From: Halobacteriales archaeon
GTDB lineage: Archaea > Halobacteriota > Halobacteria > Halobacteriales > SKSH01
Assembly: GCA_007118145.1 (NCBI GenBank)
Contig: SKSD01000010.1
Location: 582 to 64,581 of the forward strand
Reading direction: 5' to 3'
Length of the DNA stretch: 64,000 nt
Shown here: positions 234 to 25,049 of the stretch, one piece after another
Layout: each line of letters begins with the position of its first letter
Position numbering within the stretch: position 1 is the stretch's first letter
Notes under the pieces: generated by a model
Database searches by the model: none
Told to the model about the DNA's origin: nothing
What the model saw: only the letters and a program-made list of their open reading frames with translations
Made by a program: the position numbers and the translations under genes

Positions 234-502
234 GGCACAGAGACCAGCCGAACCCGGACTGGAGCCGTTTTCCCCACCTCCATTACGACCGTGCCGACGA
301 TAGTCGGGTTCCCACAGGCCGGTTACCCGGCGAGCGGTACTTGGTCTTTTCCTGCCCCCTCCGGAAGGGACAGCTCCGGGGTGGTGCGCTTCTCCTTCGG
401 ACCGTTCACCTTATGGTTTCAGTGAGCGACCCCAGATTGTCGCTTTTCGCAGTTGCGATCTTCGACAACCCGTCCAGTTGATCCGGTTGACCTCTGCGCA
501 CC
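234..502 (-). ncRNA. Putative stand-alone structured non-coding RNA (~270 nt), family not recognised
   Basis: On the minus strand 499-480 pairs with 235-254 (19 of 20 positions, 5 G-U pairs that would be A-C mismatches on +), followed by ACUGGA/UCCAGU. Internal hairpins at 435-470, 352-373, 318-331 (GUAA GNRA loop) and 294-307. TATA-like element ~25-27 nt upstream; no credible ORF. Confidence 0.72.
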
Positions 503-522
503 TTCGATGAGCGAGCGGCCAC

Positions 523-536
523 CTTATACTTATTCG
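523..536 (-). promoter_or_regulatory. BRE/TATA-like promoter of the putative ncRNA
   Basis: Minus strand reads CGAATAAGTATAAG, with TATAAG at 528-523, ~27 nt before the start of the terminal helix (canonical archaeal spacing). Confidence 0.55.
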
Positions 537-9768: not shown

Positions 9769-10356
9769 ATGGCAAGATCCGCCAATCGAACACAAGCCGC
9801 TCCATCAGATGGGGTCCGACTGTGGTTCCCCGGCTACGGCCCAATCGCAGGTATCATCGGATATGTCGTGTTCTTCCTCGTCATCGACGCGATCAAGCCG
9901 GCCATCGTGACCACCGTCACCGATCTCTTCACCTCGGTCTCACCGAGTCAGGTCGGTACGATCCTTGCGGTGTTCCTCTGGTTCATCTTTGGCCTGACCG
10001 TGTTCGGTATCACGCACGATCAACTGCGAAAGAACCCCTACGAGTTCACCAATCGCTATGAGTTGCAGGTCTTCATCGAGGAACACCGGCTCCCTCCGCT
10101 CGGCTACGTGTTGTATACGACACTGGCCGTCCTTGGTGGGATCATCTCCCTCGCGTTATGGCCTTCATTCATCGAGGTATTCAGTGAGTTCGTACTCATA
10201 CTGAGCGGTGAGGCATCTGGCCTTGCGGACACTGTGACCGCTCGGAAAACATTGACATTCGTGGGATTCTTCCTCGCCTTCGGTGCGTGTTCACACGGGC
10301 TCGACCGACTCCTCATCGGCGGTATCCGCGAACTCATCGTGCGACGCTCCATGTAG
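9769..10356 (+). CDS. Hypothetical membrane protein (4 TM)
   Basis: 195 aa with four hydrophobic segments, C-terminal GLDRLLIGGIRE. Confidence 0.75.
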   Translation: MARSANRTQAAPSDGVRLWFPGYGPIAGIIGYVVFFLVIDAIKPAIVTTVTDLFTSVSPSQVGTILAVFLWFIFGLTVFGITHDQLRKNPYEFTNRYELQVFIEEHRLPPLGYVLYTTLAVLGGIISLALWPSFIEVFSEFVLILSGEASGLADTVTARKTLTFVGFFLAFGACSHGLDRLLIGGIRELIVRRSM

Positions 10357-10870
10357 AAAGCGCGTTCAGCGAGAGACGGTCATCGCAGCGAGCGTTTCAG
10401 AGGGTCTCTCCAGAGATCAGACTCACCCAGACTTACCAGACACTTGACAAGACACGCAATCTGACACCGGCGTGATTGCCATTCCACCCGTTCCAGATAG
10501 AGTTACAGCGGATGAACGTCGTCCCGAATGGGCTGGCATCAGTATCGACTCGGAAACCATTTCCACCACATGACCACGCCTCACAATCATACCATCGACT
10601 CCCGTAACTCCCTCGATCATCGGTGGCCGTTGTCGTGATGTGTACGCAGTGAGTGTTCGTCTTGAACAGCTTCAGATGACTGAACGATGCGTTCGGTGCT
10701 CCAATGACCTGAAGGCCGACGTTCTTCAGGTTCTTCACGAGTGATGTGTTTCGAAAGTCCCTGATTCACAGATATTTACAAAACACCCACGCACCAAACA
10801 GGTGTGAAAATAATTAATAGACTGTCATAACCCCGTGAGGTGAGCGAGACGAATCGGTCGGTCTAGGTAG

Positions 10871-12367
10871 CTAGTAGACAGCGTCGAGAATTGCTGGCGC
10901 AAGACCGTCGAACTGACGAAGATATGCCCGTCGATCATCACGCTGATACCTCACCTTGTCCTCCAGGTCATCGACATGTGCGGCGACATCGAACAGAGTG
11001 CTGTCCACACCAGGGACGGCGCGAGGTACCTCGAGACTGAGGGTCTCATCATACCGCCATTCGACCTGATCCTGGGCGATCGCCTTGAGGATATTGGCTG
11101 AATCCTCGACGCTGATATCTCGTGCCTGCTGGCCGAGGTGGCCTGTGTTCAACAGGTAACTGTCGATGTCGAGATGGTCGACGAGGCCACGCAGCAGATT
11201 CCCCTCCTCAGCACGTGAACCGATGGTGAACGGGTTCGTGCCGACGACCCGAATCGACTCGCCAGCGCGGTCTGGGTCGCCTGCACTCGTCTCGACCGAT
11301 TCACCGAGCATGAACGCAACGGCTGCCTGATCGGGTGTCAACCTGGCAACCGGTGGGCAGATGGGGTTGCGCGTGATGAAAAAGAGCTGGTCGACGCCGT
11401 CGAGATCGATCGTACCCGGAGCGATCGAGACATGTTCACGCAGGACGACCGCCCGACCATTGGCGGTATAGGTATCATCGTCGAAGTCGACCCTGCCATC
11501 CTCGTCGATATACACATTCTCAAAGACGGCCGACTCGTGGGTCACTCCGTTGTACAGTTCAGCCTGCTCATCGGGATCGAGACCGGCCGTCTTGACGTAC
11601 ATCCCATATCCCTCTGATCCAACCGCACTACCATCAGGTAACAGCCCACAGACATCGTCTTGCATGACACGGACGCTGCCATCTTGCAGCCCGTAGCCAT
11701 GGGTGGTCAGTGTTGTCTTCCCTGTCGCAGACAACCCCATGAACAGCTGGCCCACCTCGTCACCACCGACTGTTACCTGCTTCGACCCGGCATGTAGGCC
11801 GATGCCACCGTCGCGTTTTACCTCATACATAAACTGTCTGAGGAAGGATTTCTTCGCCTCACCGGTATAATCGCTGCCGATGACAGCGGTGAACCGCTCA
11901 TCAGGAAAGACCCTGATGGCAGTGATATCGTGATCGGGTACCTGTAATGTCCGGAAATCTGGAGGGGCACCCTCCTCAGTAGGTTCGAGCAACTTCGCCC
12001 ATGCATGTGCGATACGAGCGTACCCGGTCGGGACGTAGTATCGGCACACATAGGTGTGGTCTGGGTGGCTCCCCAGTTTCCGGTCCAGACAGAGCATATC
12101 TGCATCGTGAGCGAGCTCGATCGCCTGTGCGACCAGGTCGATATCTTCCTCAGTGAACTCGTGATCGATGGTATTGGCGGTTTGATCGGCGCTTCGCGAG
12201 GTGAACTCACTGTAGTATCCTGCCGACCCATACTCGGTGGTCCGTTCCTCTGCGCGTGCCAACTCGCGCAGTCGCGAAATCGACGGATTATACGTCACAT
12301 TGGACGCTGTGTGCGGATCTGGGAGGTCAATCACATCCGCAGGTGACCAACTTCGGGGCAGTGACAT
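10871..12367 (-). CDS. pckA: Phosphoenolpyruvate carboxykinase (ATP)
   Basis: DYTGEAKKSFLR, LHAGSK, P-loop GLSATGKTTLT, QDDV, FENV, T.NGRA; start set at ATG 12367. Confidence 0.9.
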   Translation of the reverse strand: MSLPRSWSPADVIDLPDPHTASNVTYNPSISRLRELARAEERTTEYGSAGYYSEFTSRSADQTANTIDHEFTEEDIDLVAQAIELAHDADMLCLDRKLGSHPDHTYVCRYYVPTGYARIAHAWAKLLEPTEEGAPPDFRTLQVPDHDITAIRVFPDERFTAVIGSDYTGEAKKSFLRQFMYEVKRDGGIGLHAGSKQVTVGGDEVGQLFMGLSATGKTTLTTHGYGLQDGSVRVMQDDVCGLLPDGSAVGSEGYGMYVKTAGLDPDEQAELYNGVTHESAVFENVYIDEDGRVDFDDDTYTANGRAVVLREHVSIAPGTIDLDGVDQLFFITRNPICPPVARLTPDQAAVAFMLGESVETSAGDPDRAGESIRVVGTNPFTIGSRAEEGNLLRGLVDHLDIDSYLLNTGHLGQQARDISVEDSANILKAIAQDQVEWRYDETLSLEVPRAVPGVDSTLFDVAAHVDDLEDKVRYQRDDRRAYLRQFDGLAPAILDAVY

Positions 12368-12447
12368 TATGTGAAACTTCAACTCCAATTACCATAAAAC
12401 CGGTTCGATTGCGACGTAGTTATGGTGTGATGAAAATCACGCCTGGC

Positions 12448-15400
12448 TCAGTCGAGTATCCTGACACCGGTGATCGCGAACCGCGTCCCTCCACCCTCAG
12501 CCTCTGATACCTCGATACTCCAGTCGTGTGCATTGACGATCTCTCTGACGATCGACAGCCCAAAGCCCGTACCCTCCGGGCGTGTACTGTAGCCGAGGTC
12601 GAACAGCCGTTCGGTATCGATACCGTTCAGACCGACACCGTCATCCTCCACAAAATAGCCATCATCGAGCTGACCGATCCGGACTGTCACGGACCGACCA
12701 CCATGATCGACGGCGTTGTGGAACAGGTTCTCAAGGATATGTCGCAAGGGGTCGGGGTCAGCCTCGATCGTCACGTCATCGATCACCTCCAACGTCGCCT
12801 CACCACTTGAGACAGTCGCCCATGATTGATGTGCGACCTGGCTGAGTGAGACAGGTTCCATCCTCGTGAGCATCTCACCCCTCCGTGCCAGTGAGAGCGT
12901 CCCATCGATGATATCATCCATCCGATTCAATGCATTGGCGATCATCTCGACGGCATCATCATCACGGTCGCCACGCAACAGTTCGAGATGGCCTGCGGCG
13001 ACGTTGAGTGGGTTCCTGAGGTCATGTGAGAGTACGTTCGAGAACTGCTCCAGCCGTTCGTTCTGACGGCGAAGCTCACGTTCTCGCTGCAGACGTGATA
13101 TCGCGTTCTCGGTATGACGGATGAGCAACTCACTCAGAGCCAAATCTCGTTCGTCGAACGCCTCAGGCTGTTCAGATATCACCTGAAAGACACCGATATC
13201 GCCGATCGGTATGCTGATCGCAGAGCCGATCTCCATCTGCGGTACCGCCATCTCGAACTCGGTGATATCACTGACGAGATACGACTCCCCATGCTGGTAG
13301 GTTAGCCCAGCGACCCCCTCGTCCACCTCCATGGTCGGCGGTGCGTCGAAATCGAGCTGCTCGGACATGGCGGTGACGAGGAGTTTGCCTTGCTCCTCGA
13401 TGGCGATACCAGAGCGGTCGAAGTCCAACAACGAAGAAGCTACCTCGATGGTGAGTTCGAACACGTCATTTTCTGTCTCGCAGTGTGCGAGTTCCGTCGC
13501 GACATGGTGCAACTCGGTGATGACCTGCTCGCGATGGATACGGTCATAGATATGCGATATCCACCGACACACAAGTTCGACGAAGACCTTGTGCTCAGGT
13601 GAGAACCCCTCTGGTCTCGCTGCCTCATCGACGAAACACACGGTCCCGAACTGGTCATCATCGACGATGAGTCGACCACCGATATAACATCCAAAGCCGT
13701 GTTTGGTGTAAGCCGGGTGGTCTTCAAGCCCCTCTTCTTCAGCAGAGGCGATCGCCACGATGGTATCATCATCGAGTGTATATTGGCAGTAGGTATCGGC
13801 GAGGTCAGTCTGTAGTCCCTCCTCAACACCGTGACCGGCCACCCTGAGCACCTCATACGTCGACTGTGATGGGTCGATACGGGTGACGTACCCACACGAG
13901 AGATTCAAACTCGTACAGCCGAGTTCGAGGAGTCTACCGATCGTCTCGTGTGGATCGATACTGGGATCAGACGTGATCTGATAGAGTTGCTGTCGATAGT
14001 GTTCATTTTGGTCTCGCTGTTCCTCCCGTCGTTTTCGATCTGAGATATCTCGTCCATTGATGACGTATGAGGCATCATCCTGCTCAGAGACGCTCGCCTC
14101 GATCCAGAGCCAGTCATCATCCGCGGTTGAGACACGGAACTCACCTCGGGTATGTCCCGCCTCCCCATGTTCGAACAGGTAGTGTATGACCTCTCGATCG
14201 TCGGGGTGAACGACCGAATCCAGGTGTCTGTCGGTCAACTCATCTGGGTCCCATCCAGTCATTCGCTCAACCGCCGGGCTGATGTATGAGATCGTTCGGT
14301 TTTCGTCGATGACGGCGATGACATCACTGGCGTGTTCGATATATGCCTGATAGCGTTGCTTGAGCTCGGTAAGGTCTTCCTCACGACGCTTTTGCTCGGA
14401 GATATCGATGTAGATGACAAAGCAATCGAGGTGCCCATCGTTGTTGGTCCCGACCGGCACCGACCTGAGCAGGAAGTCACGGATACCATCGACAGTCTGT
14501 CGGCGCACCTCCCTGACAACACTCTCACCCTCAAGGATGCGTTGGTCGATCAGTCGAGCCTCCTCGAGTAATCCCTCCGGGACGACGAACTCGTTATTCG
14601 AGTGACCGATCGCATCCCGCTCATCTACCCCGAAGGTCGTCTCGTAGGCATGATTCACTGCCTGGATGATCGGCTCACCATCACGCATCTCCAGTTGAGC
14701 GACCGGCTCAGGGATCGTACCGATCAGACCAGAGAGACGGTCTCGCTCGTCCTCGATCACCTGCTCACGTGCTTTTTGCTCGGGGATATCCCGAGCCACA
14801 CCGATCATCAGCTGCCGCCCATCCGAGCGCTCAAGCGGTTCGCCGTAATCCTCGACCCACCTGGTCGAACCACCCACCTCGGTTCGGAACTCGACCTCGA
14901 ACGGTTCACTGGCATCAATCGCCCGTTCGAATGCCCGTGCTACCCGGTCACGATCTTCAGGATGTATCCGTTCGAAGTAGTCGGACGACTCCTCGATTCG
15001 TGTCTGGAATACCGGGTGGAACTCGGGATGGTAGGTCACCGTGTCAGCTTCAATATCATACTCCCAGATGGCCGCTGTCGTGACATCGAGGGCCATCTCC
15101 ATCCGCTTTGATGCCTGCTCATGTTCATGCTCGTTGAGCTTGCGTTCGGTGATATCTCGGATGGCAGCCATCACACGCTCATCCCCATCGATCGTGGTCT
15201 TGGTGAGGTGTACCTCGACCGGGACGAACGACCCATCGCTCTTCCTGATCAGCCATTCGAATGTCAACGGTTCGTCATCGGCCGCCTGTCTGATCAGCAT
15301 CTGTGCCCGTTCGGTGGTGAAGGGAGCCACCTCAGCATGGAGCTCATCAAAGCCACACTCGAGCATATCATCACGTGAATAGCCAAAGAGTGAGCAACAT

Positions 15401-15897
15401 TGCTGATTGGCATCGAGGATGGTCCCCTCAGGTACCTTGTGTAGGATGATACCATCGGGTATCTTGTCAAACATCTCCTGGTAGTTCAACCGGGCACGGT
15501 GTCGATCGACGGCGTTGGTGATGCGGTTGGCGAGGATTTCGAACTGCTCGCTCCCAGACCGCTTTTGCAGGTAATCGGTCACGCCAGCCGATATCGCGCG
15601 GCTGGCGATCTCCTCGCTGCCCTTGCCGGTGAAGAGGATGAACGGGAGATCTGCATATCGCTCGCGAATCTGTTCGAGTAACTTGATGCCCGACCCACCA
15701 GGCATCTCGAAGTCGGAGACGATACAATCGACCCCGTCATCGAGGTGCTCAAGAGCGGCCTGCATCGAGTGTGTTGAGTCGACGGCAATATCCGCAGATA
15801 CCGATTGCAGGTACTCAGCCGATATCGCAGCGAATTCGGGGTCATCATCGACATGTAACACCCGAATGGATCTCCCCATTATGAGCGGTGAAGCCAT
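12448..15897 (-). CDS. Hybrid sensor histidine kinase: REC + 4 PAS + 2 GAF + HisKA + HATPase
   Basis: LHVDDD..DCIVSDFEMPG..LFTGKG receiver; HPEDR/HPDDR PAS motifs; H-box SHDLRNPL; NLFHNA, EDDGVG, GTGFGL. Confidence 0.93.
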   Translation of the reverse strand: MASPLIMGRSIRVLHVDDDPEFAAISAEYLQSVSADIAVDSTHSMQAALEHLDDGVDCIVSDFEMPGGSGIKLLEQIRERYADLPFILFTGKGSEEIASRAISAGVTDYLQKRSGSEQFEILANRITNAVDRHRARLNYQEMFDKIPDGIILHKVPEGTILDANQQCCSLFGYSRDDMLECGFDELHAEVAPFTTERAQMLIRQAADDEPLTFEWLIRKSDGSFVPVEVHLTKTTIDGDERVMAAIRDITERKLNEHEHEQASKRMEMALDVTTAAIWEYDIEADTVTYHPEFHPVFQTRIEESSDYFERIHPEDRDRVARAFERAIDASEPFEVEFRTEVGGSTRWVEDYGEPLERSDGRQLMIGVARDIPEQKAREQVIEDERDRLSGLIGTIPEPVAQLEMRDGEPIIQAVNHAYETTFGVDERDAIGHSNNEFVVPEGLLEEARLIDQRILEGESVVREVRRQTVDGIRDFLLRSVPVGTNNDGHLDCFVIYIDISEQKRREEDLTELKQRYQAYIEHASDVIAVIDENRTISYISPAVERMTGWDPDELTDRHLDSVVHPDDREVIHYLFEHGEAGHTRGEFRVSTADDDWLWIEASVSEQDDASYVINGRDISDRKRREEQRDQNEHYRQQLYQITSDPSIDPHETIGRLLELGCTSLNLSCGYVTRIDPSQSTYEVLRVAGHGVEEGLQTDLADTYCQYTLDDDTIVAIASAEEEGLEDHPAYTKHGFGCYIGGRLIVDDDQFGTVCFVDEAARPEGFSPEHKVFVELVCRWISHIYDRIHREQVITELHHVATELAHCETENDVFELTIEVASSLLDFDRSGIAIEEQGKLLVTAMSEQLDFDAPPTMEVDEGVAGLTYQHGESYLVSDITEFEMAVPQMEIGSAISIPIGDIGVFQVISEQPEAFDERDLALSELLIRHTENAISRLQRERELRRQNERLEQFSNVLSHDLRNPLNVAAGHLELLRGDRDDDAVEMIANALNRMDDIIDGTLSLARRGEMLTRMEPVSLSQVAHQSWATVSSGEATLEVIDDVTIEADPDPLRHILENLFHNAVDHGGRSVTVRIGQLDDGYFVEDDGVGLNGIDTERLFDLGYSTRPEGTGFGLSIVREIVNAHDWSIEVSEAEGGGTRFAITGVRILD

Positions 15898-16089
15898 CCC
15901 CCTTCTTACGATTTCCGGAGTGATTATCAGAAAAGATGAATACTAAACCTGTCTGTCGGAGTTGTAGTCGCCAAATGACGATCCATTCGACACAGTTTCT
16001 CTCACCAGTGATAACCGAAATCCAGTGTTCTCCCTGGCAGGGAAACCTTTGATAACCCTTCACGTGTTGAGACTGGTGAATCAGTCCGT

Positions 16090-16548
16090 ATGTTCAAGAC
16101 GATACTGCTCCCAACCGATGGTAGCCCGAATGCTCGGGCAGCGACTGAGATGGCGTTCGATCTCGCCAAGGCGACAGATGCATCGGTGTTCGTGAGTTAT
16201 ATTGTCGAGTTTCTACCAGCATACGGGCGTGCAGGCGCACCGTGGATACTCGGTCAGGGGGTCAAACGCGAGGAGATGATCGCTCGTGGTGAGAGCGTGG
16301 TCGAGGCGGTGACCAGACTCGCCGATGAACGAGGGATCGAGTGCAAGACAAAGGTGACCAGCGGTGTACCGCAGCAACTCATCGTCGAACAGGCAAAGCG
16401 GGTCGATGCCGACGTGATCGTGATGGGGAAGACCGATCGCCGAGGTGTCAGTGAACGTCTCTGGGGGAGTACCGCCGACCGAGTCGTCATGCGAGCGACC
16501 GTGCCAGTACTGCTTGTGAGTGAGGCAGATCTCGCGTCTACAGGGTGA
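16090..16548 (+). CDS. Universal stress protein (UspA family)
   Basis: ILLPTDGS..A..A, DVIVMG, GSTADRVVMRATVPVLLV. Confidence 0.92.
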   Translation: MFKTILLPTDGSPNARAATEMAFDLAKATDASVFVSYIVEFLPAYGRAGAPWILGQGVKREEMIARGESVVEAVTRLADERGIECKTKVTSGVPQQLIVEQAKRVDADVIVMGKTDRRGVSERLWGSTADRVVMRATVPVLLVSEADLASTG

Positions 16549-16748
16549 TGGCCGGCGATGGCCAGGCTACTCGGAAGCGCATCATCCAGATCATCGTGCT
16601 GGGAGGGGTCCCACTGCTCACGCTGATCGGGATGGTGTGGTTAATCACAGAAGATGTGGCCTATCCGACGAACGTGGCGATCGGTGTTGGTCTGTTCGGG
16701 CTGTTATGGTTCTGGTTCCGTTCACTCGGTCGGCTCACCGGTGATTGA
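16545..16748 (+). CDS. Small 2-TM membrane protein coupled to UspA
   Basis: 67 aa, two hydrophobic helices, GTGA overlap with the uspA stop. Confidence 0.65.
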   Translation: MMAGDGQATRKRIIQIIVLGGVPLLTLIGMVWLITEDVAYPTNVAIGVGLFGLLWFWFRSLGRLTGD

Positions 16749-16971
16749 CATTCGTTCCCTCCTGATGAACGTGCAGATAGCCTTGATACATTAATAGGAG
16801 GTCATCTGTCACCGACTGAGCATCCAGCACGACTCGCTTAATCGCCCGACGCGAGCGTCATGTGTGGTGTTATCAATGTTTATTCTCAAGACCATCACCC
16901 TTTAATAGCAGACTGCAAACTCACCGTATCGTGCAGACGCACGCGGTAACGCGACATGGAGATGATCGCTG

Positions 16972-18090
16972 ATGTGCTCGGCCATCCCCAAGTCGGAAGC
17001 CTCGCTTGTCGGCCTGGTGAGTGGCGACCTTCTCGGCATCGATATCGTGGTGACGATCGCCATCATCGTCTTCGCCCTTCTCGTGAGCACGTTCACACTC
17101 ACGATGGGACTCTCGGTGGTAGGGCATCGTCGTGATACTGAGCAAGCTGCAGTGGTCGCCGAGGTCCGTGATGGCCTACTCGAACGACTCAGCCGTGACC
17201 GGCCAGGGTGGGAAGAGTGGGTCGACACCCTCGACGAACCGAGGGAGGAGGTACTCCTCGATCACCTGGAGACCTATCTTGATATGTTGGTTGGTCGAGA
17301 TCACGAGCGATTGCTCGAGTTGGCAGAGACTCTCGATCTGTACGAACGTGCTCGGCTATCGATCGAGACCGGTGATACCTTCGACCGGTGCCGTGCGCTT
17401 CGCTGGCTCGATATCATGGACATGTCGATCGACCCGGGCTGGTTGCTCCCTCGGATATCCACTGCGAGGATCGAGCGCGAGGCAGCAGCACCGGTACTGC
17501 GTCGACATCCCGATGGACACCAACTCGCTCTCTCGTTACTCCTTGAAGGCGAGTATCTGACGGGTCATGGCATGGAGACACTCTATCAGCTCATCGCCGA
17601 TGACCCGACGCCGACTGTCGAACATCTCCACGAGATCGAGTCCACCGAACTCCTCTCACAGGTGTTACTCGTACTCGCCGCCCGTCCGTCGTCCGATGAG
17701 GAACCACCGATCGAGCCACTGACCGAGCTTTACGGACATGCTGATGAACGTATTCGAGCCCGTACCTGCCTCGTACTAGGCACCTTCGCCTGGCACGAAG
17801 ACCTCAAGGAGTCGATCGATATCGATGCGTTACTCGATGATAGCCCAGAGGTACGTATCGCCACGTATCGAATGCTTGCCAGGTGGCGTGACGAGATCGC
17901 CAGACACCATCTCCGGACAGCACTCGATGAGGAGACGGATCGTCGGGCAAAGATTGTACTCGTACGGTCGCTCTTGCAACATGGCCGACGCGGTGATCGC
18001 TTCGCCCTCGCCGGCCTTGTCGATGAGAACCTCCTCACATGGGCAAGGCTCGAAGGCGTTGCCAGTGAGCGGAGGGACCCACTGCTATGA
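16972..18090 (+). CDS. Membrane-anchored HEAT-repeat protein
   Basis: N-terminal TM helix, then helical repeats (DERIRARTCLVLG, SPEVRIATYRML); ATGA overlap with the GT2; exact start uncertain. Confidence 0.75.
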   Translation: MCSAIPKSEASLVGLVSGDLLGIDIVVTIAIIVFALLVSTFTLTMGLSVVGHRRDTEQAAVVAEVRDGLLERLSRDRPGWEEWVDTLDEPREEVLLDHLETYLDMLVGRDHERLLELAETLDLYERARLSIETGDTFDRCRALRWLDIMDMSIDPGWLLPRISTARIEREAAAPVLRRHPDGHQLALSLLLEGEYLTGHGMETLYQLIADDPTPTVEHLHEIESTELLSQVLLVLAARPSSDEEPPIEPLTELYGHADERIRARTCLVLGTFAWHEDLKESIDIDALLDDSPEVRIATYRMLARWRDEIARHHLRTALDEETDRRAKIVLVRSLLQHGRRGDRFALAGLVDENLLTWARLEGVASERRDPLL

Positions 18091-19529
18091 TTCGAGAGCT
18101 GCTCATGTGGGTGATCGTCACATCAGCCATCATCGTGCTGATTCTGTATGCGGTCATCAACGCGTTCTACCTGTTCATCCATATCATCGGGCTTGTCGAA
18201 CTTCGTGACCAGATGCGAGATCAGGAGGTCGACCCAGCGTACTCCTCCTTCGATAGCAACTTCCTCCCCGGTGTGGCGATGATCGTCCCTGCATACAACG
18301 AGGCGAACACGATCGTCGATTGCGTCCGCTCACTCGTCGAGATCGAGTACCCCGAGGTGACGGTCATCGCCGTGAACGATGGCTCGACGGATGACACACT
18401 CGAGCGGCTCACGGAGACGTTTGGCCTCGAGCTTGTCAATGATACACCACCGTGGCAGCTCTCCGATACCGAGGTGCACGGGATATACCGATCGACGACG
18501 GCAGAGCGGTTGTACGTGATCGACAAGGAAAACGGTGGTAAGAGTGATGCACTGAACGCAGGGATCAACTTCACCGAACAACCGCTGTTCTGTTCGATCG
18601 ATGCTGACTCTATCATCGACCGATCTGGCCTCAGACGGGTGGTCGCCCCGTTTATCGCTAATCCAAAGGAGGTGGTCGCATCGGGTGGGACGGTCCGACT
18701 TGCCAATGGCTGCGTGATCGAGGATGGGCATCTGGTCGATGCGAACATGTCTGACTCGCTGCTCGTGCAGATGCAAGAGGCGGAGTATCTCAGATCGTTC
18801 TACTCCGGCCGTCTCGGCCTGAGTCGTCTGCGAAACCTGCTGGTCATCTCGGGGACGTTCGGCATGTTCAGGACCGATGTGATACGTGAGATCGGTGGGT
18901 ACAATCCCGAGACGGTGACTGAAGACCTTGACCTCGTGGTCAGATTACACCGTCACTTTCACGAGCACGACCTTCCGTATCGCGTAGAGTTCGTCTCCGA
19001 ACCGATCGTCTGGACCCAGGCACCAGAACGCCTGGGCGACCTGGGCAGACAGCGACGTCGATGGTATCGAGGGCTCCTTGAGGTCATCTCCACCAACCGC
19101 GACATGATCGCCAACCCACGATACGGCACCATCGGAATGTTCGCCATCCCGATCCATATCATCGCTGAGGTGTTCGGACCGCTGCTTGAGGCGTATGGCT
19201 ATCTCGTCGTGATCACGGCGATTATCCTCGGTATCTTGCACGTCGAGTTCTTCGTGTTGTTCTTGTTGGTGATCATCGGGATCGGGATCTTCCTGTCCAC
19301 CTTCGGTGTCTTCAGTGAGGTATGGGGCTACCGTCGGTACGACGACCCTGGAGAGATAGCCGTCCTCCTCGGAGCATCGATCGTCGAGAACATCGGCTAC
19401 CGCCAGCTCCGTGCGGTCTGGGCCGTCCACGGTCTCGTCGAGTTCCTCAGAAGGGACACGAGCTGGGGCCGCATCCGCCGGCAGACCTTCAACGATACCG
19501 CTGTCGGTGAAATGTCGTCGAATGAGTGA
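18087..19529 (+). CDS. Processive GT2 glycosyltransferase (CesA/IcaA/PgaC-like)
   Basis: VPAYNE, VNDGSTD, KENGGKSDALNAG, IDADS, TVTEDLDL, QRRRWYRG (QxxRW), C-terminal TMs. Confidence 0.92.
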   Translation: MIRELLMWVIVTSAIIVLILYAVINAFYLFIHIIGLVELRDQMRDQEVDPAYSSFDSNFLPGVAMIVPAYNEANTIVDCVRSLVEIEYPEVTVIAVNDGSTDDTLERLTETFGLELVNDTPPWQLSDTEVHGIYRSTTAERLYVIDKENGGKSDALNAGINFTEQPLFCSIDADSIIDRSGLRRVVAPFIANPKEVVASGGTVRLANGCVIEDGHLVDANMSDSLLVQMQEAEYLRSFYSGRLGLSRLRNLLVISGTFGMFRTDVIREIGGYNPETVTEDLDLVVRLHRHFHEHDLPYRVEFVSEPIVWTQAPERLGDLGRQRRRWYRGLLEVISTNRDMIANPRYGTIGMFAIPIHIIAEVFGPLLEAYGYLVVITAIILGILHVEFFVLFLLVIIGIGIFLSTFGVFSEVWGYRRYDDPGEIAVLLGASIVENIGYRQLRAVWAVHGLVEFLRRDTSWGRIRRQTFNDTAVGEMSSNE

Positions 19530-19621
19530 GAAGCAAGGTGGTCACAAATCGCAACACGATATCAGTGGTAATGATTAGTGTTGAACAATGTTAATATATC
19601 CTGATAACAAATGAGAGTGTC

Positions 19622-19945
19622 ATGAACGGGGTACTCCAGGTCGACCTCAGCCTCCTGCAACCGCAGGAAGTGGTCGTCCTCATCGTCGCCGTCGGTGGAC
19701 TTCTCCCGATCATCCTCTACTATCGGTGGGCGACGAGGTGGGTGCTCATCGCGTATGCATTCTTACTGATCGGTGCGCTCGCCACCAATATCGAAAACCT
19801 CTTTTGGCACGATCAGATCAACCGTATCGAGCACTTCGTTGGCAACCTTGGGGCCGGTATCGCCTTTGCGGTCGCCGCGTACGCCTATCGCGCCTCGTTG
19901 ACCGACGAGTTTGGTCCCGATGGAGGTCAAGGCGATGACGATTGA
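19622..19945 (+). CDS. Small 3-TM membrane protein upstream of a sensor kinase
   Basis: 107 aa, three hydrophobic segments, overlaps the kinase start. Confidence 0.75.
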   Translation: MNGVLQVDLSLLQPQEVVVLIVAVGGLLPIILYYRWATRWVLIAYAFLLIGALATNIENLFWHDQINRIEHFVGNLGAGIAFAVAAYAYRASLTDEFGPDGGQGDDD

Positions 19946-21317
19946 CAGTCTCATCCCAGCCGCAGATATCATTGGGGCTGGTGGCTTTCTGACCGCTGCC
20001 TACCTCGGGTTGCTCAACTACCGAGATACCCACGCAGAAAGGGTCTTCTGGCTCGTCTTCGTCTTTACCTCGCTTCTTGGGGCACTCTGGCTCTCACTGG
20101 TAGCGCTGGAATGGCTGAACGTCACACCAGAACTGCTTGATGCACTGAGTACGTCATTACAGGCCGTGGTCATCGGTTTGTTCGCCGTCGGGACGATCGG
20201 TGCGAGGAGCCTCGTCGAGGATCTCAAGGCATCCAATCGGCGAGCAGCGAAGCAGCGCATGGAGGCGATCGATGCACGTGAGCAGGCTGAACAACGCAAG
20301 CAAGAGCTCGAACGGATGCGAGATCTGATGCGAAACACCGAGCGACTGGCTGATGTTGGTTCGTGGGAACTCGATACCACGAACGATATCATCGAGTGGA
20401 CGAATGGGACACGCGAGATATTCGAGGTGGACGCTGGCTTCTCAGCAGATGCTCATATCGCACTTCGTTTCTATCACGATGATGATCGAAAGAAACTCGA
20501 TCGACTACTCGATGAGTGTCTGGCATCAGGGACCTCATTTCAAGAGACGCTCCGGATACGGACTGCCAAGGGGAGCGAGCGATGGGTCGAGATGTTCGGT
20601 GAACGGACGACCGACACAGACGGTACACATCATATCCGAGGGTGTGTACAGGACATCACCGAGTTACAAGAGCGAGAGGAGCAAATCGCCATCCTCGACC
20701 GTGTTCTCAGACACAACATCAGAAACGATGTGAACAAGATCATCGGCAATGCCCAGCTCATAAAGGAACGGACCGAGGTCGAGCTCACCGAATTCATCGA
20801 GAGTATCGTCGAAAACGCGAACGGACTCGTCGAGATGGCGAACAAACAGCGAACCGTCACCGCATTGCTCAAGCGGGCACGGGGTCGTGAGGAGATCGCC
20901 ATCGAATCGCTGATCAATCCACCGGTGAGGCGACTTCGCGAGCGGTACCCACAGGCAGATATTGTGATCACGCAAGTAGACGAATTGACATTCCTGACGA
21001 TTCCCGAACTTGAGGTGGTCATCGAGGAAATCATGGAGAATGCCATCGTGCACTCAGATAGAGAGACACCATCTGTCGAGATAGCCACCAATACGACCCG
21101 CTCGAGCCTGCAGATCACCATCGCTGATGACGGGCCTGGGATACCTCAGCACGAACGGCGTGTCATCAACGAGGAGGTCGAAGTCGATCCCCTGAAACAC
21201 GGGAGTGGGATGGGTCTGTGGATGGTCAAGCGCATCATCCACCGCACCGGTGGTACCCTCGAGTTCGAACCGAGACACCCTCGAGGGAGTCTCGTACACC
21301 TGCAATTCACGATCTGA
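19935..21317 (+). CDS. Membrane sensor histidine kinase with PAS domain
   Basis: 3 TM, coiled coil, PAS (VGSWE..YHDDDR..GCVQDIT), H-box RVLRHNIRND, ENAIVH, DDGPGIP, HGSGMGLW; start ATG 19935. Confidence 0.9.
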   Translation: MTIDSLIPAADIIGAGGFLTAAYLGLLNYRDTHAERVFWLVFVFTSLLGALWLSLVALEWLNVTPELLDALSTSLQAVVIGLFAVGTIGARSLVEDLKASNRRAAKQRMEAIDAREQAEQRKQELERMRDLMRNTERLADVGSWELDTTNDIIEWTNGTREIFEVDAGFSADAHIALRFYHDDDRKKLDRLLDECLASGTSFQETLRIRTAKGSERWVEMFGERTTDTDGTHHIRGCVQDITELQEREEQIAILDRVLRHNIRNDVNKIIGNAQLIKERTEVELTEFIESIVENANGLVEMANKQRTVTALLKRARGREEIAIESLINPPVRRLRERYPQADIVITQVDELTFLTIPELEVVIEEIMENAIVHSDRETPSVEIATNTTRSSLQITIADDGPGIPQHERRVINEEVEVDPLKHGSGMGLWMVKRIIHRTGGTLEFEPRHPRGSLVHLQFTI

Positions 21318-21379
21318 CCTTGTGTGGGCGCCCAATTGCCAACGGAATCACTTTACCCAGGTACCAAGATGGCTCCTTA

Positions 21380-21414
21380 TTGACATCCTCCCACGGCTGA
21401 AGCCGTGGGTTTCC
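21380..21414 (-). mobile_element. Orphan right end of an IS200/IS605 (IS1341/tnpB-type) element
   Basis: Minus strand GGAAACCCACGGCTTCAGCCGTGGGAGGATGTCAA: subterminal hairpin CCCACGGCT-TC-AGCCGTGGG ending in TCAA, the typical haloarchaeal tnpB-element end; no tnpA/tnpB nearby. Confidence 0.75.
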
Positions 21415-21471
21415 GCTCGTAGTATGTCATGCACATACCGCGATGTCCAACGAGTTCCCGATTGGTCTCAC

Positions 21472-21687
21472 TCACCGCTCGAGTTCGATGGCGTCCTCTA
21501 CTTGATGGACTAGATCGAGTGCGGGTGCACGCAAGGTAGCAGACACCTCGACTGAGGCATCGGGATCGAGGTCCCCAGCATCGACCGCGTCGTGGATGGC
21601 CATCTCAAGCTCGCGCTGTGAGGTCACACCGAACTGTTTCAGGAAGCTCCGAATCTCGAGGTTGACGGTATCCTCATCCATACTCAT
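21472..21687 (-). CDS. Small protein resembling the DUF6494 family
   Basis: MSMDEDTVNLEIRSFLKQFGVTSQRELEMAI...IELER matches the remembered 'N..IR.FLK..GVTSQREIE.A' pattern. Confidence 0.7.
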   Translation of the reverse strand: MSMDEDTVNLEIRSFLKQFGVTSQRELEMAIHDAVDAGDLDPDASVEVSATLRAPALDLVHQVEDAIELER

Positions 21688-21748
21688 GATTCTCATCACA
21701 AATCGATAAATCCCGAGGTCGGTCCAAACTCGAACAGAGCGAGCACGC

Positions 21749-22279
21749 TCAATAGTACTCAAGCACCAGCGCAAGCACCGTATTCGGATGGGTTGGTTCG
21801 TCGAGTGTACTCGCTATACTGTATCGTTCGGTCGCTGTCTCGATACCGCGAAGTGTCGCGGCTGAGATGTAAAACTCCTCACAGACACCAGCATGCTCGC
21901 GAGCCCACGTAGCCGCCTCGAGACTTGGTAGATTGAATGCCGGTGTCTCACTCAGATACAGGGCTGCCATGAACTCATCGTGTAACTCCGAGAACGTCTC
22001 CGCGAGTGATTGAGCCCATTGTTCGGTCGCAAACGCCTCCGACCCGGAGATATCACCGGGTGCATCGGTGACGATCGGTTCGAGCTGCTCGGTGAAATCG
22101 TCAATCGCCTGCTGGGCGGCGTCGTATGCCTGTTCGTATCGGCTCATCCCATCCTCGTCATACGTTGAGAGGTCGTCTCGAGTGGGCTCGTCGTCTGCGT
22201 CATCGTCATCGCCAAGACAGCCTGCGACGGTGACGGGTGGGAGACACGCGACACCGATGAGGAACCGTCTACGATACAT
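21749..22279 (-). CDS. Tat-exported lipoprotein
   Basis: MYRRRFL twin-arginine motif, VAGC lipobox, acidic helical mature region. Confidence 0.8.
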   Translation of the reverse strand: MYRRRFLIGVACLPPVTVAGCLGDDDDADDEPTRDDLSTYDEDGMSRYEQAYDAAQQAIDDFTEQLEPIVTDAPGDISGSEAFATEQWAQSLAETFSELHDEFMAALYLSETPAFNLPSLEAATWAREHAGVCEEFYISAATLRGIETATERYSIASTLDEPTHPNTVLALVLEYY

Positions 22280-22469
22280 GCCTCAGGAACACCGAGTGGC
22301 CACTGATAAGGGTTTCAGCCTGAGAATCACAGATGAAAATTGTGCATCACATCAGCCAGCCAAGGGTACCTGTTCACCTGCGAATCATCCTCTAGCTGAA
22401 ACAATCCAATCAAATAGCACGACATCCTATACGAACCAGATCAACACACCCCGAGGGGTCGAACCCAAC

Positions 22470-24638
22470 ATGACTCATGAGCGCCGACACATCGCATCAA
22501 GCCGATCGAGTGCCGACGTACGCGCTCAGCCCCGTATGCGTGAGGCCTGCGTCGTGCTCGTCACTTGTTGTGTGATTTTCTTCCTGAGCGTCACCCTCGT
22601 GGGCCTACCATCGATCGTCACCGCTGAGAACCCTGAGGCGAACGGGGCCGACCGCATCCTATCGAATGATGTGGTCGCTCCTGGTGGTGAGATCACGGTT
22701 GAGACGACCGTCGCGTTCGAAGATCCTACCTCAGGGGTTCTGACCGAATCGGTCGATCCAGCGGTTGATGGTATCGTGATCGACGATGATGATGGTGCAG
22801 ATGAGGTGACTGTCGATGATGACCACGTATCGTTCACCTTCACCGATCGTACATCTGTCACCGTCACCTATACCCTCGAGTTCGACCAATCGGTCGATGA
22901 TGGTGATACCTTCGAGATCGAAGGTGTGTGGGACAACGGTGACACTGTCGAACTCCCAGAGTCAACCGTGACCGTCTCCGACGGTCCAATATTCGAGGTC
23001 GAACAACTAGAGATCCCTGAACGCGTCCCACCTGGGCAGGGGTTCGATGTTGCGTTGGTCATCAACAACACCGGATCGGAGACCGATACGCAGACGGTCG
23101 AACTATCCCTCGACAGTTCCACACTTCGTGAGAGCGACCCCATCACACTCGGTCCCGGGGAACAGCAATCGCTCGTCTTCGAGGATGTGACGATCGACGA
23201 TCCGGGGGTGTACGCACTTGCGATCGAGACCGAACAGCACCTACGGTCGCACAATATCACCGTTGAGTCATTCGCACGCTTCGACGTGGAGATGATCGAT
23301 GCTCCACAGACGGTCGCCGATGTCGACGAGTTCGTCGTCACGGCGGTGGTGTCGAACACGGGCGACCTCTCGGCCACCCAAGACATTCGATTGCAGGTCA
23401 ACGATGATACCATCACCGTTCGAGAGGACGTGACGATCGAACCGGGGCAATCACAGCTCATCTCGTTCGACCCGATCCGGATCGACGAGACTGGTATCCA
23501 CACACTCAGGGTTATGACAGACGATAGCGACCTGACACGGACTATCTCCGTAGTTGAGGCCGAGGTATCTGCACGATTTGAAGATCAGCTCATCGGCACC
23601 GATACCGGTGGGAACACCGCCGTCTATATCGAGGAGGTCACTGCAGACCAAGGCTGGTCGATCGTCCTCACCTACGAGAACGAGACCGGTGTATCGATCG
23701 TTGCCGGGATGTATACCTTCGATGAACCGGTCGAAGACGGTTTTGTGTCCGTCCCGATCGAAGACAGTCACGCCTATCCAGGTACCATGGAGGCTCACGT
23801 CGCCATCGATACTGATGACGTGACGATCGGAGAGCCACTACCGGAGACGGTCGAACGCTTACTCACAGATAGTGCCTCCGTCTTTGAGATATCGATCGAC
23901 CTCTATGACCAGTCGTTCGATGATGCGACCTCGACGATCACCGTCTCAGCCGCAGCGTTGTTTGATGCACCAGATTCTGGGGCTACACCGTACATCATCG
24001 CCCTGTATCGAGACGCTGGTGATGGTCTCGAAATCGTCGGTCAGAGCAACCCGATCTGGGGTGCTGAGCAGGATATCGAGATCGCGTTAGACCGATCTCT
24101 CGATATCGAGGGAGACCACGAGATGATCGCCCGAGTGCACTACGCTGTGGTTGGCCAACGTGGTGAGCCAATCCATATGCTCGATGGTTCATCACCATCG
24201 ACGGTCGATGAACCGGTGACCGTCCGAATCGTCAACACGCCGTCGTTTACGATACAAGGGGTAAATCGAGATGCATCTGTGACGGCGGGTGAGACGCTCA
24301 ACATAGAGATCACGGTGATGAACGAGGGCGTCGCAGCTGGCTCGAAATCGCTGTGGGTGTCAGCAGGAGCTTGGGTCGAACTGGTCGATATCACGCTCGA
24401 TCCAGGTGAGACGAAGACGGTCTCCGTCTCCTGGCCGACGACATCTGACGATATCGGTGAGGTGACACTGCTGGTTGACTCCGGTGATGACCAGGAGTTA
24501 TCCACCCTCTCTATCGAGACACCAAGTGAGACAGAGACACCAAGTGACGGTGATCCCATACCTGGCTTCGGCCTGGCCATCGGTGTGTTATCACTCGTGA
24601 TTCTCTCGTATGCCCTCAGCCGCCGATATCGACCATAG
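22470..24638 (+). CDS. PGF-CTERM cell-surface glycoprotein with CARDB-like repeats
   Basis: Signal peptide; three 'NTG/NEG...TL.PGE' CARDB-like units; NxT/S sequons; C-terminal PIPGF + TM + RRYRP; start 22470 or 22537 rather than 22068. Confidence 0.85.
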   Translation: MTHERRHIASSRSSADVRAQPRMREACVVLVTCCVIFFLSVTLVGLPSIVTAENPEANGADRILSNDVVAPGGEITVETTVAFEDPTSGVLTESVDPAVDGIVIDDDDGADEVTVDDDHVSFTFTDRTSVTVTYTLEFDQSVDDGDTFEIEGVWDNGDTVELPESTVTVSDGPIFEVEQLEIPERVPPGQGFDVALVINNTGSETDTQTVELSLDSSTLRESDPITLGPGEQQSLVFEDVTIDDPGVYALAIETEQHLRSHNITVESFARFDVEMIDAPQTVADVDEFVVTAVVSNTGDLSATQDIRLQVNDDTITVREDVTIEPGQSQLISFDPIRIDETGIHTLRVMTDDSDLTRTISVVEAEVSARFEDQLIGTDTGGNTAVYIEEVTADQGWSIVLTYENETGVSIVAGMYTFDEPVEDGFVSVPIEDSHAYPGTMEAHVAIDTDDVTIGEPLPETVERLLTDSASVFEISIDLYDQSFDDATSTITVSAAALFDAPDSGATPYIIALYRDAGDGLEIVGQSNPIWGAEQDIEIALDRSLDIEGDHEMIARVHYAVVGQRGEPIHMLDGSSPSTVDEPVTVRIVNTPSFTIQGVNRDASVTAGETLNIEITVMNEGVAAGSKSLWVSAGAWVELVDITLDPGETKTVSVSWPTTSDDIGEVTLLVDSGDDQELSTLSIETPSETETPSDGDPIPGFGLAIGVLSLVILSYALSRRYRP

Positions 24639-24787
24639 AGGCGCCTCGGTATCGATATTCTGGGATTGCTCCACTGTCACGAACAGTTATCAGGAGTAAG
24701 GATGTATATCAATCGATGAACACATGATGGAACCGATCTGTTCGTCGGGTGGAATACACATTTGTTCCCTCAAGTGGGTGATTCACC

Positions 24788-24970
24788 GTGGCCATTAGTT
24801 TCTGGTTCTTGACATCAGCTGCGTTCTTCATCGCCGGGATGGTCTTGGTTCTCTCGTCGATCATCGCTGCACAGAGTGTATTTGTTGGCTACTTCGGCAT
24901 CGGGTTGCTCATGATCGGGTACGTGATGGTCTTATTCGGCAACTATTTTCGTTATATCGACTGGACGTGA
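24788..24970 (+). CDS. Small 2-TM membrane protein
   Basis: 60 aa, two hydrophobic helices, GTG start. Confidence 0.55.
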   Translation: MAISFWFLTSAAFFIAGMVLVLSSIIAAQSVFVGYFGIGLLMIGYVMVLFGNYFRYIDWT

Positions 24971-25049
24971 CCGGCAATATGATTCATCCATAGCAATTGT
25001 ACACACCAATCTTCAGTACGTGGTCAACTGCGACTTGCGGTATATCGTT

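Follow-up and report, generated by a model that had tools for sequence, protein, structure and literature searches.

A previously undescribed structured RNA family of archaea, framed in most members by a bulge-helix-bulge stem, and its co-occurrence with the nuclease HARP

A stand-alone RNA gene between two convergent genes

Near the start of the window, by which we mean the whole stretch of 64,000 nucleotides of Halobacteriales DNA under analysis, a gene for a structured RNA of about 265 nucleotides lies on the minus strand, within a 540-bp gap between two convergent genes: an open reading frame (ORF) for a putative FtsX-like ABC permease and a gene for a short-chain dehydrogenase (Table 1). 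An earlier reading of the bare sequence, here called the original prediction, had proposed an undescribed stand-alone archaeal non-coding RNA at this place and had recognized the dehydrogenase gene as convergent with it. That interpretation is supported by our analysis, which adds the family context, namely flanks of the bulge-helix-bulge (BHB) type and a link to the PIN_5 protein HARP. The gene is established, as are its fold and its family; the window's genome (1.72 Mb, 79% complete) holds one copy.

The minus strand has a folding energy of -120.7 kcal/mol (z -3.11), lower than any of 200 dinucleotide-preserving shuffles (mean -103.95, standard deviation 5.38), and the plus strand reaches -102.6 (z -1.96), a value equalled by nine of its 200 shuffles. 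The minus-strand sequence and the terminal helix of the original prediction, with pairing at 19 of 20 positions, are present, bases 1-15 of the RNA pairing with its last 15. Contigs of relatives from two other DNA runs of soda-lake samples (X3 and X5) match only positions 238-500 and carry unlike sequence beyond exactly 238 and 500, a divergence that marks the borders of the conserved unit. In both metagenomes, contig depth over 238-500 was several-fold that of the flanks; near-identical copies of the gene in different genomic contexts seem to be common to several X3 and X5 populations. Runs X7-X14, with less than a fifth of the sampled words, were left out of account for habitat. A protein-coding gene was considered and rejected: the sole ORFs are plus-strand GTG frames of 84 and 44 amino acids, on which no protein search was run, and close relatives show single-base insertions and deletions together with paired compensatory changes.

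The box resembling a B recognition element and TATA element (BRE/TATA) that had been noted upstream of the gene has the spacing seen in relatives, where 57 of 60 loci have an A/T-rich 7-mer between 37 and 60 nt upstream of H, the central helix, most commonly at -46 or -47, compared with 5.9% of background windows of those loci. Evidence on transcription comes from the metatranscriptome run X6, whose sample has a DNA run that holds the whole stretch. Over 299-403, the word depths of X6 contigs ranged from 9,807 to 25,000. For comparison, the depth was 4.7 for a contig covering 1-92 in the neighbouring gene and a flat 50.1 in the DNA run of the same sample; since contig depth reflects expression poorly and pools relatives, these values are read solely as presence at very high depth in the RNA library. 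Within positions 1-1000, X6 gave no cover at 103-272 and 409-1000, which was not used as evidence, and its contigs on the RNA, at 36-79 nt, were of a length in which no joints on the RNA were seen. With its ends taken as putative and depth as a rough guide, the RNA is abundant and independently transcribed.

The same evidence bears on a cis-regulatory element, that is, a riboswitch, a leader or the 3' untranslated region (UTR) of a neighbouring gene. Two of the first six loci do have same-strand genes after the RNA (an FAD oxidoreductase and an AsnC regulator), but a convergent gene comes next in the window and in locus L003, the neighbours differ in all six loci, nearly every locus has its own promoter box, and U/C-rich tracts come after the stem. 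Moreover, the sole recurrent neighbour of 30 loci, a PIN_5 protein, always lies on the opposite strand. Riboswitch and 3' UTR were rejected on the variable neighbours and the promoter, as the original prediction had already doubted a riboswitch, and a cis-acting role of any kind is scarcely credible.

At the gathering score, none of the 4227 models of Rfam 15 matched anywhere in the 64-kb window, in agreement with the earlier view that the RNA is neither a tRNA nor a tmRNA. In E-value mode with permissive filters, the best scores over positions 1-900 stayed at chance level (17.1 bits for a model with a gathering score of 40, and 15.9 bits for one with 35), and a permissive scan of 18 homologous loci returned three tRNAs and nothing else. 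The models of the signal recognition particle (SRP) RNA (Archaea_SRP, RF01857; gathering score 96.5 bits) and of RNase P RNA (RNaseP_arch, RF00373; 84 bits) had no match on the window. A variant of either RNA, which the original prediction had also discounted, was ruled out by the presence of both at other sites in the genome, the SRP RNA at G000:C59:1254-1566 (194.1 bits) and the RNase P RNA at G000:C2:11998-12337 (202.1 bits); both were likewise located elsewhere in all five genomes tested, the window's and four relatives with the candidate. No description of the RNA was found in the full-text literature searched, which lies outside subscription journals and includes the available portions of PMC12153264, PMC10941002, PMC5496347, PMC7714728 and PMC12558985. 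With no Rfam match, varying neighbours and covarying homologues, the family is previously undescribed.

A covarying core and its terminal stem

Covariation was counted on A2, an alignment of 32 sequences scored against seven helices that we had named. Its core comprises 43 pairs with 91.1% of cells paired; both sides have changed in 30 pairs, compared with 17.1 in shuffles, and none of 500 shuffles reached any of the observed measures. When the partners were slid by 1-3 columns, pairing amounted to only 29-47%. RNAalifold recovered the same helices from eight sequences with a closed terminal stem alone (88 pairs, 24 of them compensatory), and from 18 sequences of the BHB type it predicted 77 pairs, 50 of them compensatory. 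Homologues with compensatory changes, on which the proposal of a functional RNA depended, thus exist.

From the outside inward, the RNA consists of P1, the 4-bp helix H, a 3-nt bulge and helix h', followed by a junction with the P3 hairpin and the P4 domain, and then P-alpha, an internal loop, P5, P5a and the P6 junction with its arms P6a and P6b (Table 1). Helix H takes several sequence forms across A2, the innermost pair of h' is a G-A mismatch in the closed-stem type, and P4 of relatives has an additional hairpin. The P6 junction is 94.3% paired, with covariation in 12 of 20 pairs and none of 500 shuffles reaching the observed values. Larger relatives, up to about 450 nt, are enlarged in P3, P4 and P6b. 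In big family members (L058:7122-7349, L045:2406-2575, L121:4781-4957, L077:5008-5212), small hairpins are repeated within P6b, each with a T-loop-like loop of 7 nt and, after it, a GAAAGCC-like stretch; the hairpins look like modular tertiary-contact units.

Much of the structure originally drawn survives this comparison. The terminal stem, the promoter box and the convergent dehydrogenase gene stand, as do four hairpins, 470-435 (P3), 373-352 (P5a), 331-318 (the GNRA-capped tip of P6a) and 307-294 (P6b), all returned by RNAalifold from the eight close relatives, and those of P6a and P6b also counted on 32 sequences. Two helices and a pseudoknot do not. The proposed ACUGGA/UCCAGU extension gives way to P-alpha, to which UCC belongs, the stem resuming past the bulge as h'; in place of the multibranch arm with its UGGGGU/ACCCCG closure there are P4 and P5, the latter with covariation in all seven pairs; and the speculative CCAU/AUGG pseudoknot shows no covariation in the eight-sequence alignment, as judged by eye.

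Table 1. Coordinates of the RNA gene, its structural elements, its flanking signals and the adjacent genes
Feature	Position	Strand	Evidence or remark
RNA gene (about 265 nt)	499-235	minus	spans the terminal helix from end to end; conserved unit bordered at 238 and 500; fold z -3.11; single genomic copy
BRE/TATA-like promoter box	523-536	minus	its end is about 24 nt upstream of P1
P1, terminal helix, 5' strand	485-499, pairs with 235-249	minus	eight closed-stem sequences: 7-10 of 10 positions outward of H paired, no 3' bulge
H, central 4-bp helix, 5' strand	481-484, pairs with 250-253	minus	100% of cells paired (32 sequences); both-side changes in 3 of 4 pairs
3-nt bulge CAA	478-480	minus	CAA in 8 of 8 closed-stem sequences; equals the 5' BHB bulge of relatives; opposite 3' bulge missing
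h', 5' strand	471-477, pairs with 254-260	minus	96% paired; 6 of 7 pairs covary
P3 hairpin, size variable in the family	435-470	minus	compensatory changes in 7 of 12 pairs (eight-sequence alignment)
P4 domain: outer helix, inner helix, conserved purine-rich 10-nt loop	399-433	minus	eight-sequence RNAalifold
P-alpha, long-range, 5' strand	391-395, pairs with 261-265	minus	92.5% paired; 2 pairs with both-side changes; de novo in both RNAalifold sets
Conserved internal loop between P-alpha and P5, 5' side	385-390	minus	alignments
Internal loop, 3' side, GGAAAACG	266-273	minus	most conserved stretch of the family; columns invariant or nearly so
P5, long-range, 5' strand	378-384, pairs with 274-281, one bulged A	minus	92.4% paired; both-side changes in 7 of 7 pairs
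P5a hairpin	352-373	minus	own fold; RNAalifold on both sequence sets
P6 three-way junction	287-346; P6 343-346/287-290, P6a 312-337 (GNRA loop), P6b 294-307	minus	covariation
Pyrimidine-rich tail after P1, possible termination tract	225-234	minus	similar U/C-rich tracts follow P1 in most loci
Short-chain dehydrogenase	ends near 142		convergent, downstream of the RNA gene; adh_short match 1.4e-41
FtsX-like ABC permease ORF (putative family)	ends at 687		neighbour of the RNA gene; ORF list

The terminal stem was compared with the BHB motif, defined as a 4-bp helix with two 3-nt bulges on opposite strands and flanking helices (hBHBh'), in 61 loci that have both ends present and score at least 16 of 18 pairs. 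Along the 5' strand of such a stem, P1 is followed by the 4-bp helix, a 3-nt bulge, a 7-bp helix and the body; the 3' strand runs from the 7-bp helix through the 4-bp helix and a 3-nt bulge to P1. RNAalifold predicted both bulges de novo from the 18 BHB-type sequences, and low-GC families retain the motif with different letters. Eight of the 61 loci, the window's subfamily, have the form without the 3' bulge. The two types separate in A2, where P1 of the 22 haloarchaeal BHB-type rows pairs at 6-10 of 10 positions with the bulge and at 1-6 without it, and P1 of the eight closed-stem rows at 7-10 without the bulge and at 3-6 with it.

The other 53 loci have the canonical form. In the available portion of PMC7714728, cleavage of BHB motifs by EndA followed by circular ligation is described as established for rRNA precursors and introns, so that excision and circularisation are predicted for these 53 and are likely for relatives of this type. 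The window RNA departs from the two-bulge definition: the 5' bulge (478-480) and the 4-bp helix are there, and the 3' bulge is closed. Nine of 10 P1 positions pair without a 3' bulge and five with one, and three extra bases on the 5' strand pair with what is the 3' bulge in relatives, giving a continuous stem of about 26 bp. This closed stem suggests that the RNA of the window's lineage is most likely linear, its ends buried in the helix. A divergent subtype (L174, L178 and L179; genus g11) has a 9-nt 5' bulge and a 15-bp outer helix, which in G103 starts inside the 3' end of the ORF for the ligase Rnl3; in two g11 genomes, the subtype has neither HARP nor Rnl3 in its vicinity.

Distribution of the family and co-occurrence with HARP

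BLAST detected relatives in only seven of 60 related genomes, and covariance models were therefore needed for sensitivity. With R1, a model of the 3' three-way junction, the RNA was found in 42 of 151 Halobacteriales genomes (the order sample), spread over 14 of 18 families and mostly in one copy; among genomes at least 90% complete it occurs in 25 of 100. A phylum sample of 151 genomes added three of the four genomes of the low-GC family f28, with loci of 32-39% G+C. R2, a longer model, found the RNA in all four f28 genomes and in one genome of the low-GC family f34, and nothing in 38 further genomes, a set that had no positive control of its own although the same model found five of five carriers elsewhere. 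Members of the family range from 265 to 450 nt. A metagenome scan yielded 44 further pattern-positive loci, and a pattern scan of genome contigs gave mostly chance bacterial matches.

Several loci lie on secondary, plasmid-like replicons, and related or identical stretches occur on plasmids of Halorussus lipolyticus, H. caseinilyticus and H. halophilus, on pHBOR03 of Halogeometricum borinquense DSM 11551 and on a contig of Halosimplex carlsbadense. In H. lipolyticus DT80, an identical stretch is found at NZ_CP119805.1:118983-119343. None of these records has an annotated feature under the match, and the PLSDB table used lists no RNA genes. An RNA of mobile elements or viruses, such as a TnpB/IscB omega RNA, a retron or DRT non-coding RNA or a provirus RNA, could account for the TnpB ORF directly after one locus, for the DUF1424 Rep ORF after another and for the two or three copies in some genomes. 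Against it, most genomes carry a single copy, neither a transposase nor a reverse transcriptase is a regular neighbour, 50,697 phage records hold no match and IMG/VR no pattern match, and the omega-RNA families of Rfam do not match; we regard it as highly improbable. The genomes with two or three copies are G024, G039, G066 and G113, and G066 has two of its copies on a single contig, separated by about 500 nt (G066:C40:7810-8495).

ORFs around 30 of the RNA loci were clustered by family. The recurrent PIN_5 neighbour, found at 10 loci, matches PF08745 (4e-77) and TIGR03875, 'RNA ligase partner protein', and its placement in PIN_5 identifies it as HARP according to the available portions of PMC12153264 and PMC10941002; the former prints the PIN_5 accession as PF09745. 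HARP is a protein-only RNase P homologue of the VapC-like PIN_5 group, whose knock-outs show no phenotype (PMC12153264). Its one known genomic partner is the ligase Rnl3, and genomes without the ligase were left unexplained (PMC12153264).

In the order sample, 51 genomes have a full-length HARP gene, 42 have the RNA and 33 have both; Rnl3 is present in 35 genomes, all of them HARP-positive. Among the 100 genomes at least 90% complete, 24 have both RNA and HARP, one has the RNA only, 13 have HARP only and 62 have neither, so that HARP accompanies the RNA in 24 of 25 genomes compared with a base rate of 37 in 100 (one-sided Fisher test, 9e-13, a value that ignores kinship and is thus overstated). 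The RNA was found in all 16 genomes with HARP and without Rnl3, and in 17 of the 35 with both proteins. Within genera, the RNA and HARP pick out the same genomes (two of nine in g20, one of three in g27 and one of four in g16). In 13 of the 33 genomes, no more than 2 kb separates the two genes, which take three arrangements over seven families: divergent, convergent, or with Rnl3 beside or between them. Rnl3 is part of the cluster in four of these 13 (G103, G085, G017 and G046). Outside the order, all five RNA-positive genomes have HARP, and the phylum sample includes three HARP-positive genomes without Rnl3, of which two carry the RNA and G154 does not.

Several observations count against a partnership of the RNA with HARP. 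The other 18 HARP-positive genomes of the order yielded no RNA, even with laxer filters and R2, and R2 found it in none of the 26 genomes searched from three other HARP-positive families; HARP, therefore, does not need this RNA. Conversely, five of the six genomes with window-type RNA (70-83% complete) show no full-length HARP gene, which makes the link weaker for the window's own RNA, and G043, which is 99% complete, has the RNA without HARP. The window's own genome does have HARP, at C39:2766-3377, but together with Rnl3 on another contig and unlinked to the RNA. HARP was on the same contig in two of the 44 metagenome loci, many of these contigs being short. As regards circularisation, the circular RNAs of Haloferax volcanii, a species not itself searched for the gene by name, include seven BHB circles according to the available portion of PMC7714728, none of them like this RNA. 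Finally, shared horizontal transfer could have produced the co-occurrence, because several loci are on secondary replicons.

If these observations are given full weight, the RNA would be a structured non-coding RNA unrelated to HARP, a ribozyme or the scaffold of another protein, brought together with HARP by shared accessory DNA, habitat or lineage. This is a possibility of some substance, though a lesser one: it would accommodate the carriers that lack HARP, the wide occurrence of HARP without the RNA, the near absence of HARP from the metagenome contigs and the plasmid-like replicons, and the conserved internal loops and junctions do look like a self-contained tertiary fold. It does not fit well with the excess of HARP among high-quality RNA-positive genomes, with the RNA in every HARP-positive genome of the order that lacks Rnl3, with three adjacent arrangements in seven families, or with the selection of the same genomes within three genera. 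A functional tie between the RNA and HARP is the best available lead from comparative data, at roughly even odds.

A sharper form of that tie would be an RNA antitoxin or decoy like those of type III systems, in which the RNA would hold the PIN nuclease HARP inactive and Rnl3, which reseals 5'-phosphate/3'-hydroxyl breaks, would be the alternative safeguard. All 51 HARP-positive genomes of the order sample have Rnl3, the RNA or both, all 16 without Rnl3 having the RNA, and the same holds for 50 of 51 in the phylum sample, with G154 as the exception. The kinship of HARP with VapC-like proteins and its silent knock-outs (PMC12153264), the very high depth in the RNA library and the patchy, accessory-like distribution would agree with such a role. 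On the other hand, toxicity of HARP is not known, a Thermococcus kodakarensis Rnl3 knock-out grows normally (PMC12153264), the RNA is large, ornate and unlike known RNA antitoxins, and window-type RNA persists in genomes without HARP. We consider an antitoxin of this kind rather unlikely.

The window's genome has HARP and Rnl3 as divergent neighbours at G000:C39:1529-3377 (L182), with 347.9 bits for Rnl3 (TIGR01209) and 243.1 bits for HARP/PIN_5, an arrangement also given in PMC12153264.

A possible HARP partner and its closest known systems

The reading we favour is that positions 499-235 encode a stand-alone, abundant, trans-acting RNA, for which a partnership with HARP is about as probable as its absence. 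Transcription would start from the TATA promoter at the foot of the terminal stem, and the body would fold into a compact core in which P-alpha and P5 clamp the conserved internal loop, accompanied by the P6 junction and the P4 domain. In most relatives, EndA would cut the body out and RtcB would ligate it into a circle. In the window's lineage, the closed 3' bulge would instead leave a linear RNA with its ends protected in the stem of about 26 bp. The RNA would then partner HARP, whether bound to it as a regulator or decoy or serving as its dedicated substrate; the tie could take the form of an inhibitor or decoy, a cofactor or a substrate. More tentatively, the RNA, circular or closed-stem, may be the missing physiological partner of HARP, binding the HARP oligomer, controlling or directing the nuclease and able to replace Rnl3. 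Such a replacement would explain the distribution, because every sampled HARP-positive, Rnl3-negative haloarchaeon carries the RNA. For the window copy we expect a linear, stem-closed, abundant and trans-acting RNA with the same core function as the family.

Two more specific ideas were not borne out. A minihelix of 12 bp with a 7-nt loop, offered to HARP by the ligated flanks, is not supported, P1 being 11-15 bp long and not fixed (four loci, by hand), and neither is a T-arm mimic in the 3' strand, where the required pairs are not kept.

OLE, ROOL, GOLLD and raiA are large, ornate bacterial non-coding RNAs with many conserved helices and junctions, whose function was unknown at discovery and which are often accessory and highly expressed. 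The RNA described here resembles them in size and ornateness, and Rfam shows no similarity in sequence or model; unlike them, it is archaeal, BHB-flanked and linked to HARP. The ToxI RNAs of type III toxin-antitoxin systems are short tandem repeats processed by their own toxin. Like them, the RNA tracks an endoribonuclease gene and is often adjacent to it, whereas it is single, large, complex and often unlinked to HARP, and inhibition is only proposed. SRP RNA (RF01857) and RNase P RNA (RF00373) are likewise abundant, independently transcribed, about 300 nt long and paired at their ends, but they are universal and the candidate is patchy (42 of 151 genomes) and matches neither model.

The closest counterparts are archaeal RNAs with BHB flanks: the stems of pre-16S and pre-23S rRNA, tRNA introns and the intron in the 5' UTR of HVO_1309. 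Most members of the family have the same succession of a helix, a 4-bp helix with two opposite 3-nt bulges, and a helix. In pre-rRNA, too, the BHB stem encloses the whole body; the known substrates of this kind are cut by EndA and circularised (PMC7714728, available portion). In contrast to these RNAs, the family described here consists of stand-alone genes of 265-450 nt with their own promoter, neither rRNA nor introns of a host gene, its processing is predicted, and the window copy has one of the two bulges.

It is uncommon for a large, conserved and highly structured RNA to have no assigned function, and even more so in archaea. In this family over 40 pairs covary, and most members appear to use the tRNA and rRNA splicing machinery to excise a free-standing RNA. 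It tracks HARP and fills the HARP-positive, ligase-negative gap left by PMC12153264, and it bears on the role of HARP in archaea that also have an RNA-based RNase P. Should the RNA be a HARP partner, HARP would no longer be a spare enzyme of tRNA processing but one component of an RNA-protein system. The question can be approached experimentally in carriers that can be cultivated, among them Halorussus lipolyticus and Halogeometricum borinquense. Should the link prove coincidental, the family would still merit a covariance model for annotation.

Some features recur in the surroundings of the gene. In 26 of 60 loci, the DNA beyond the terminal stem contains a GAGCG-like motif, usually at a distance of 26-31 nt, compared with 22% of background windows of equal size, and the window has GAGC alone at about 195-205. 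A 5' leader pairing with this downstream motif is not supported, as the promoter spacing leaves almost no leader and the enrichment of the motif is weak. Mobile DNA may use the 3' flank for insertion: in one relative the RNA gene is directly followed by a TnpB-like ORF (Cas12f1-like_TNB, OrfB_IS605), and in another by a DUF1424 Rep-like ORF (L006:1759-2874, L007:1752-2936). In three loci, tRNA genes are found about 50-700 nt from the RNA gene (L183:939-1012, L045:323-395, L140:761-835), and in L158 a repeat of about 17 nt follows it immediately in five tandem copies.

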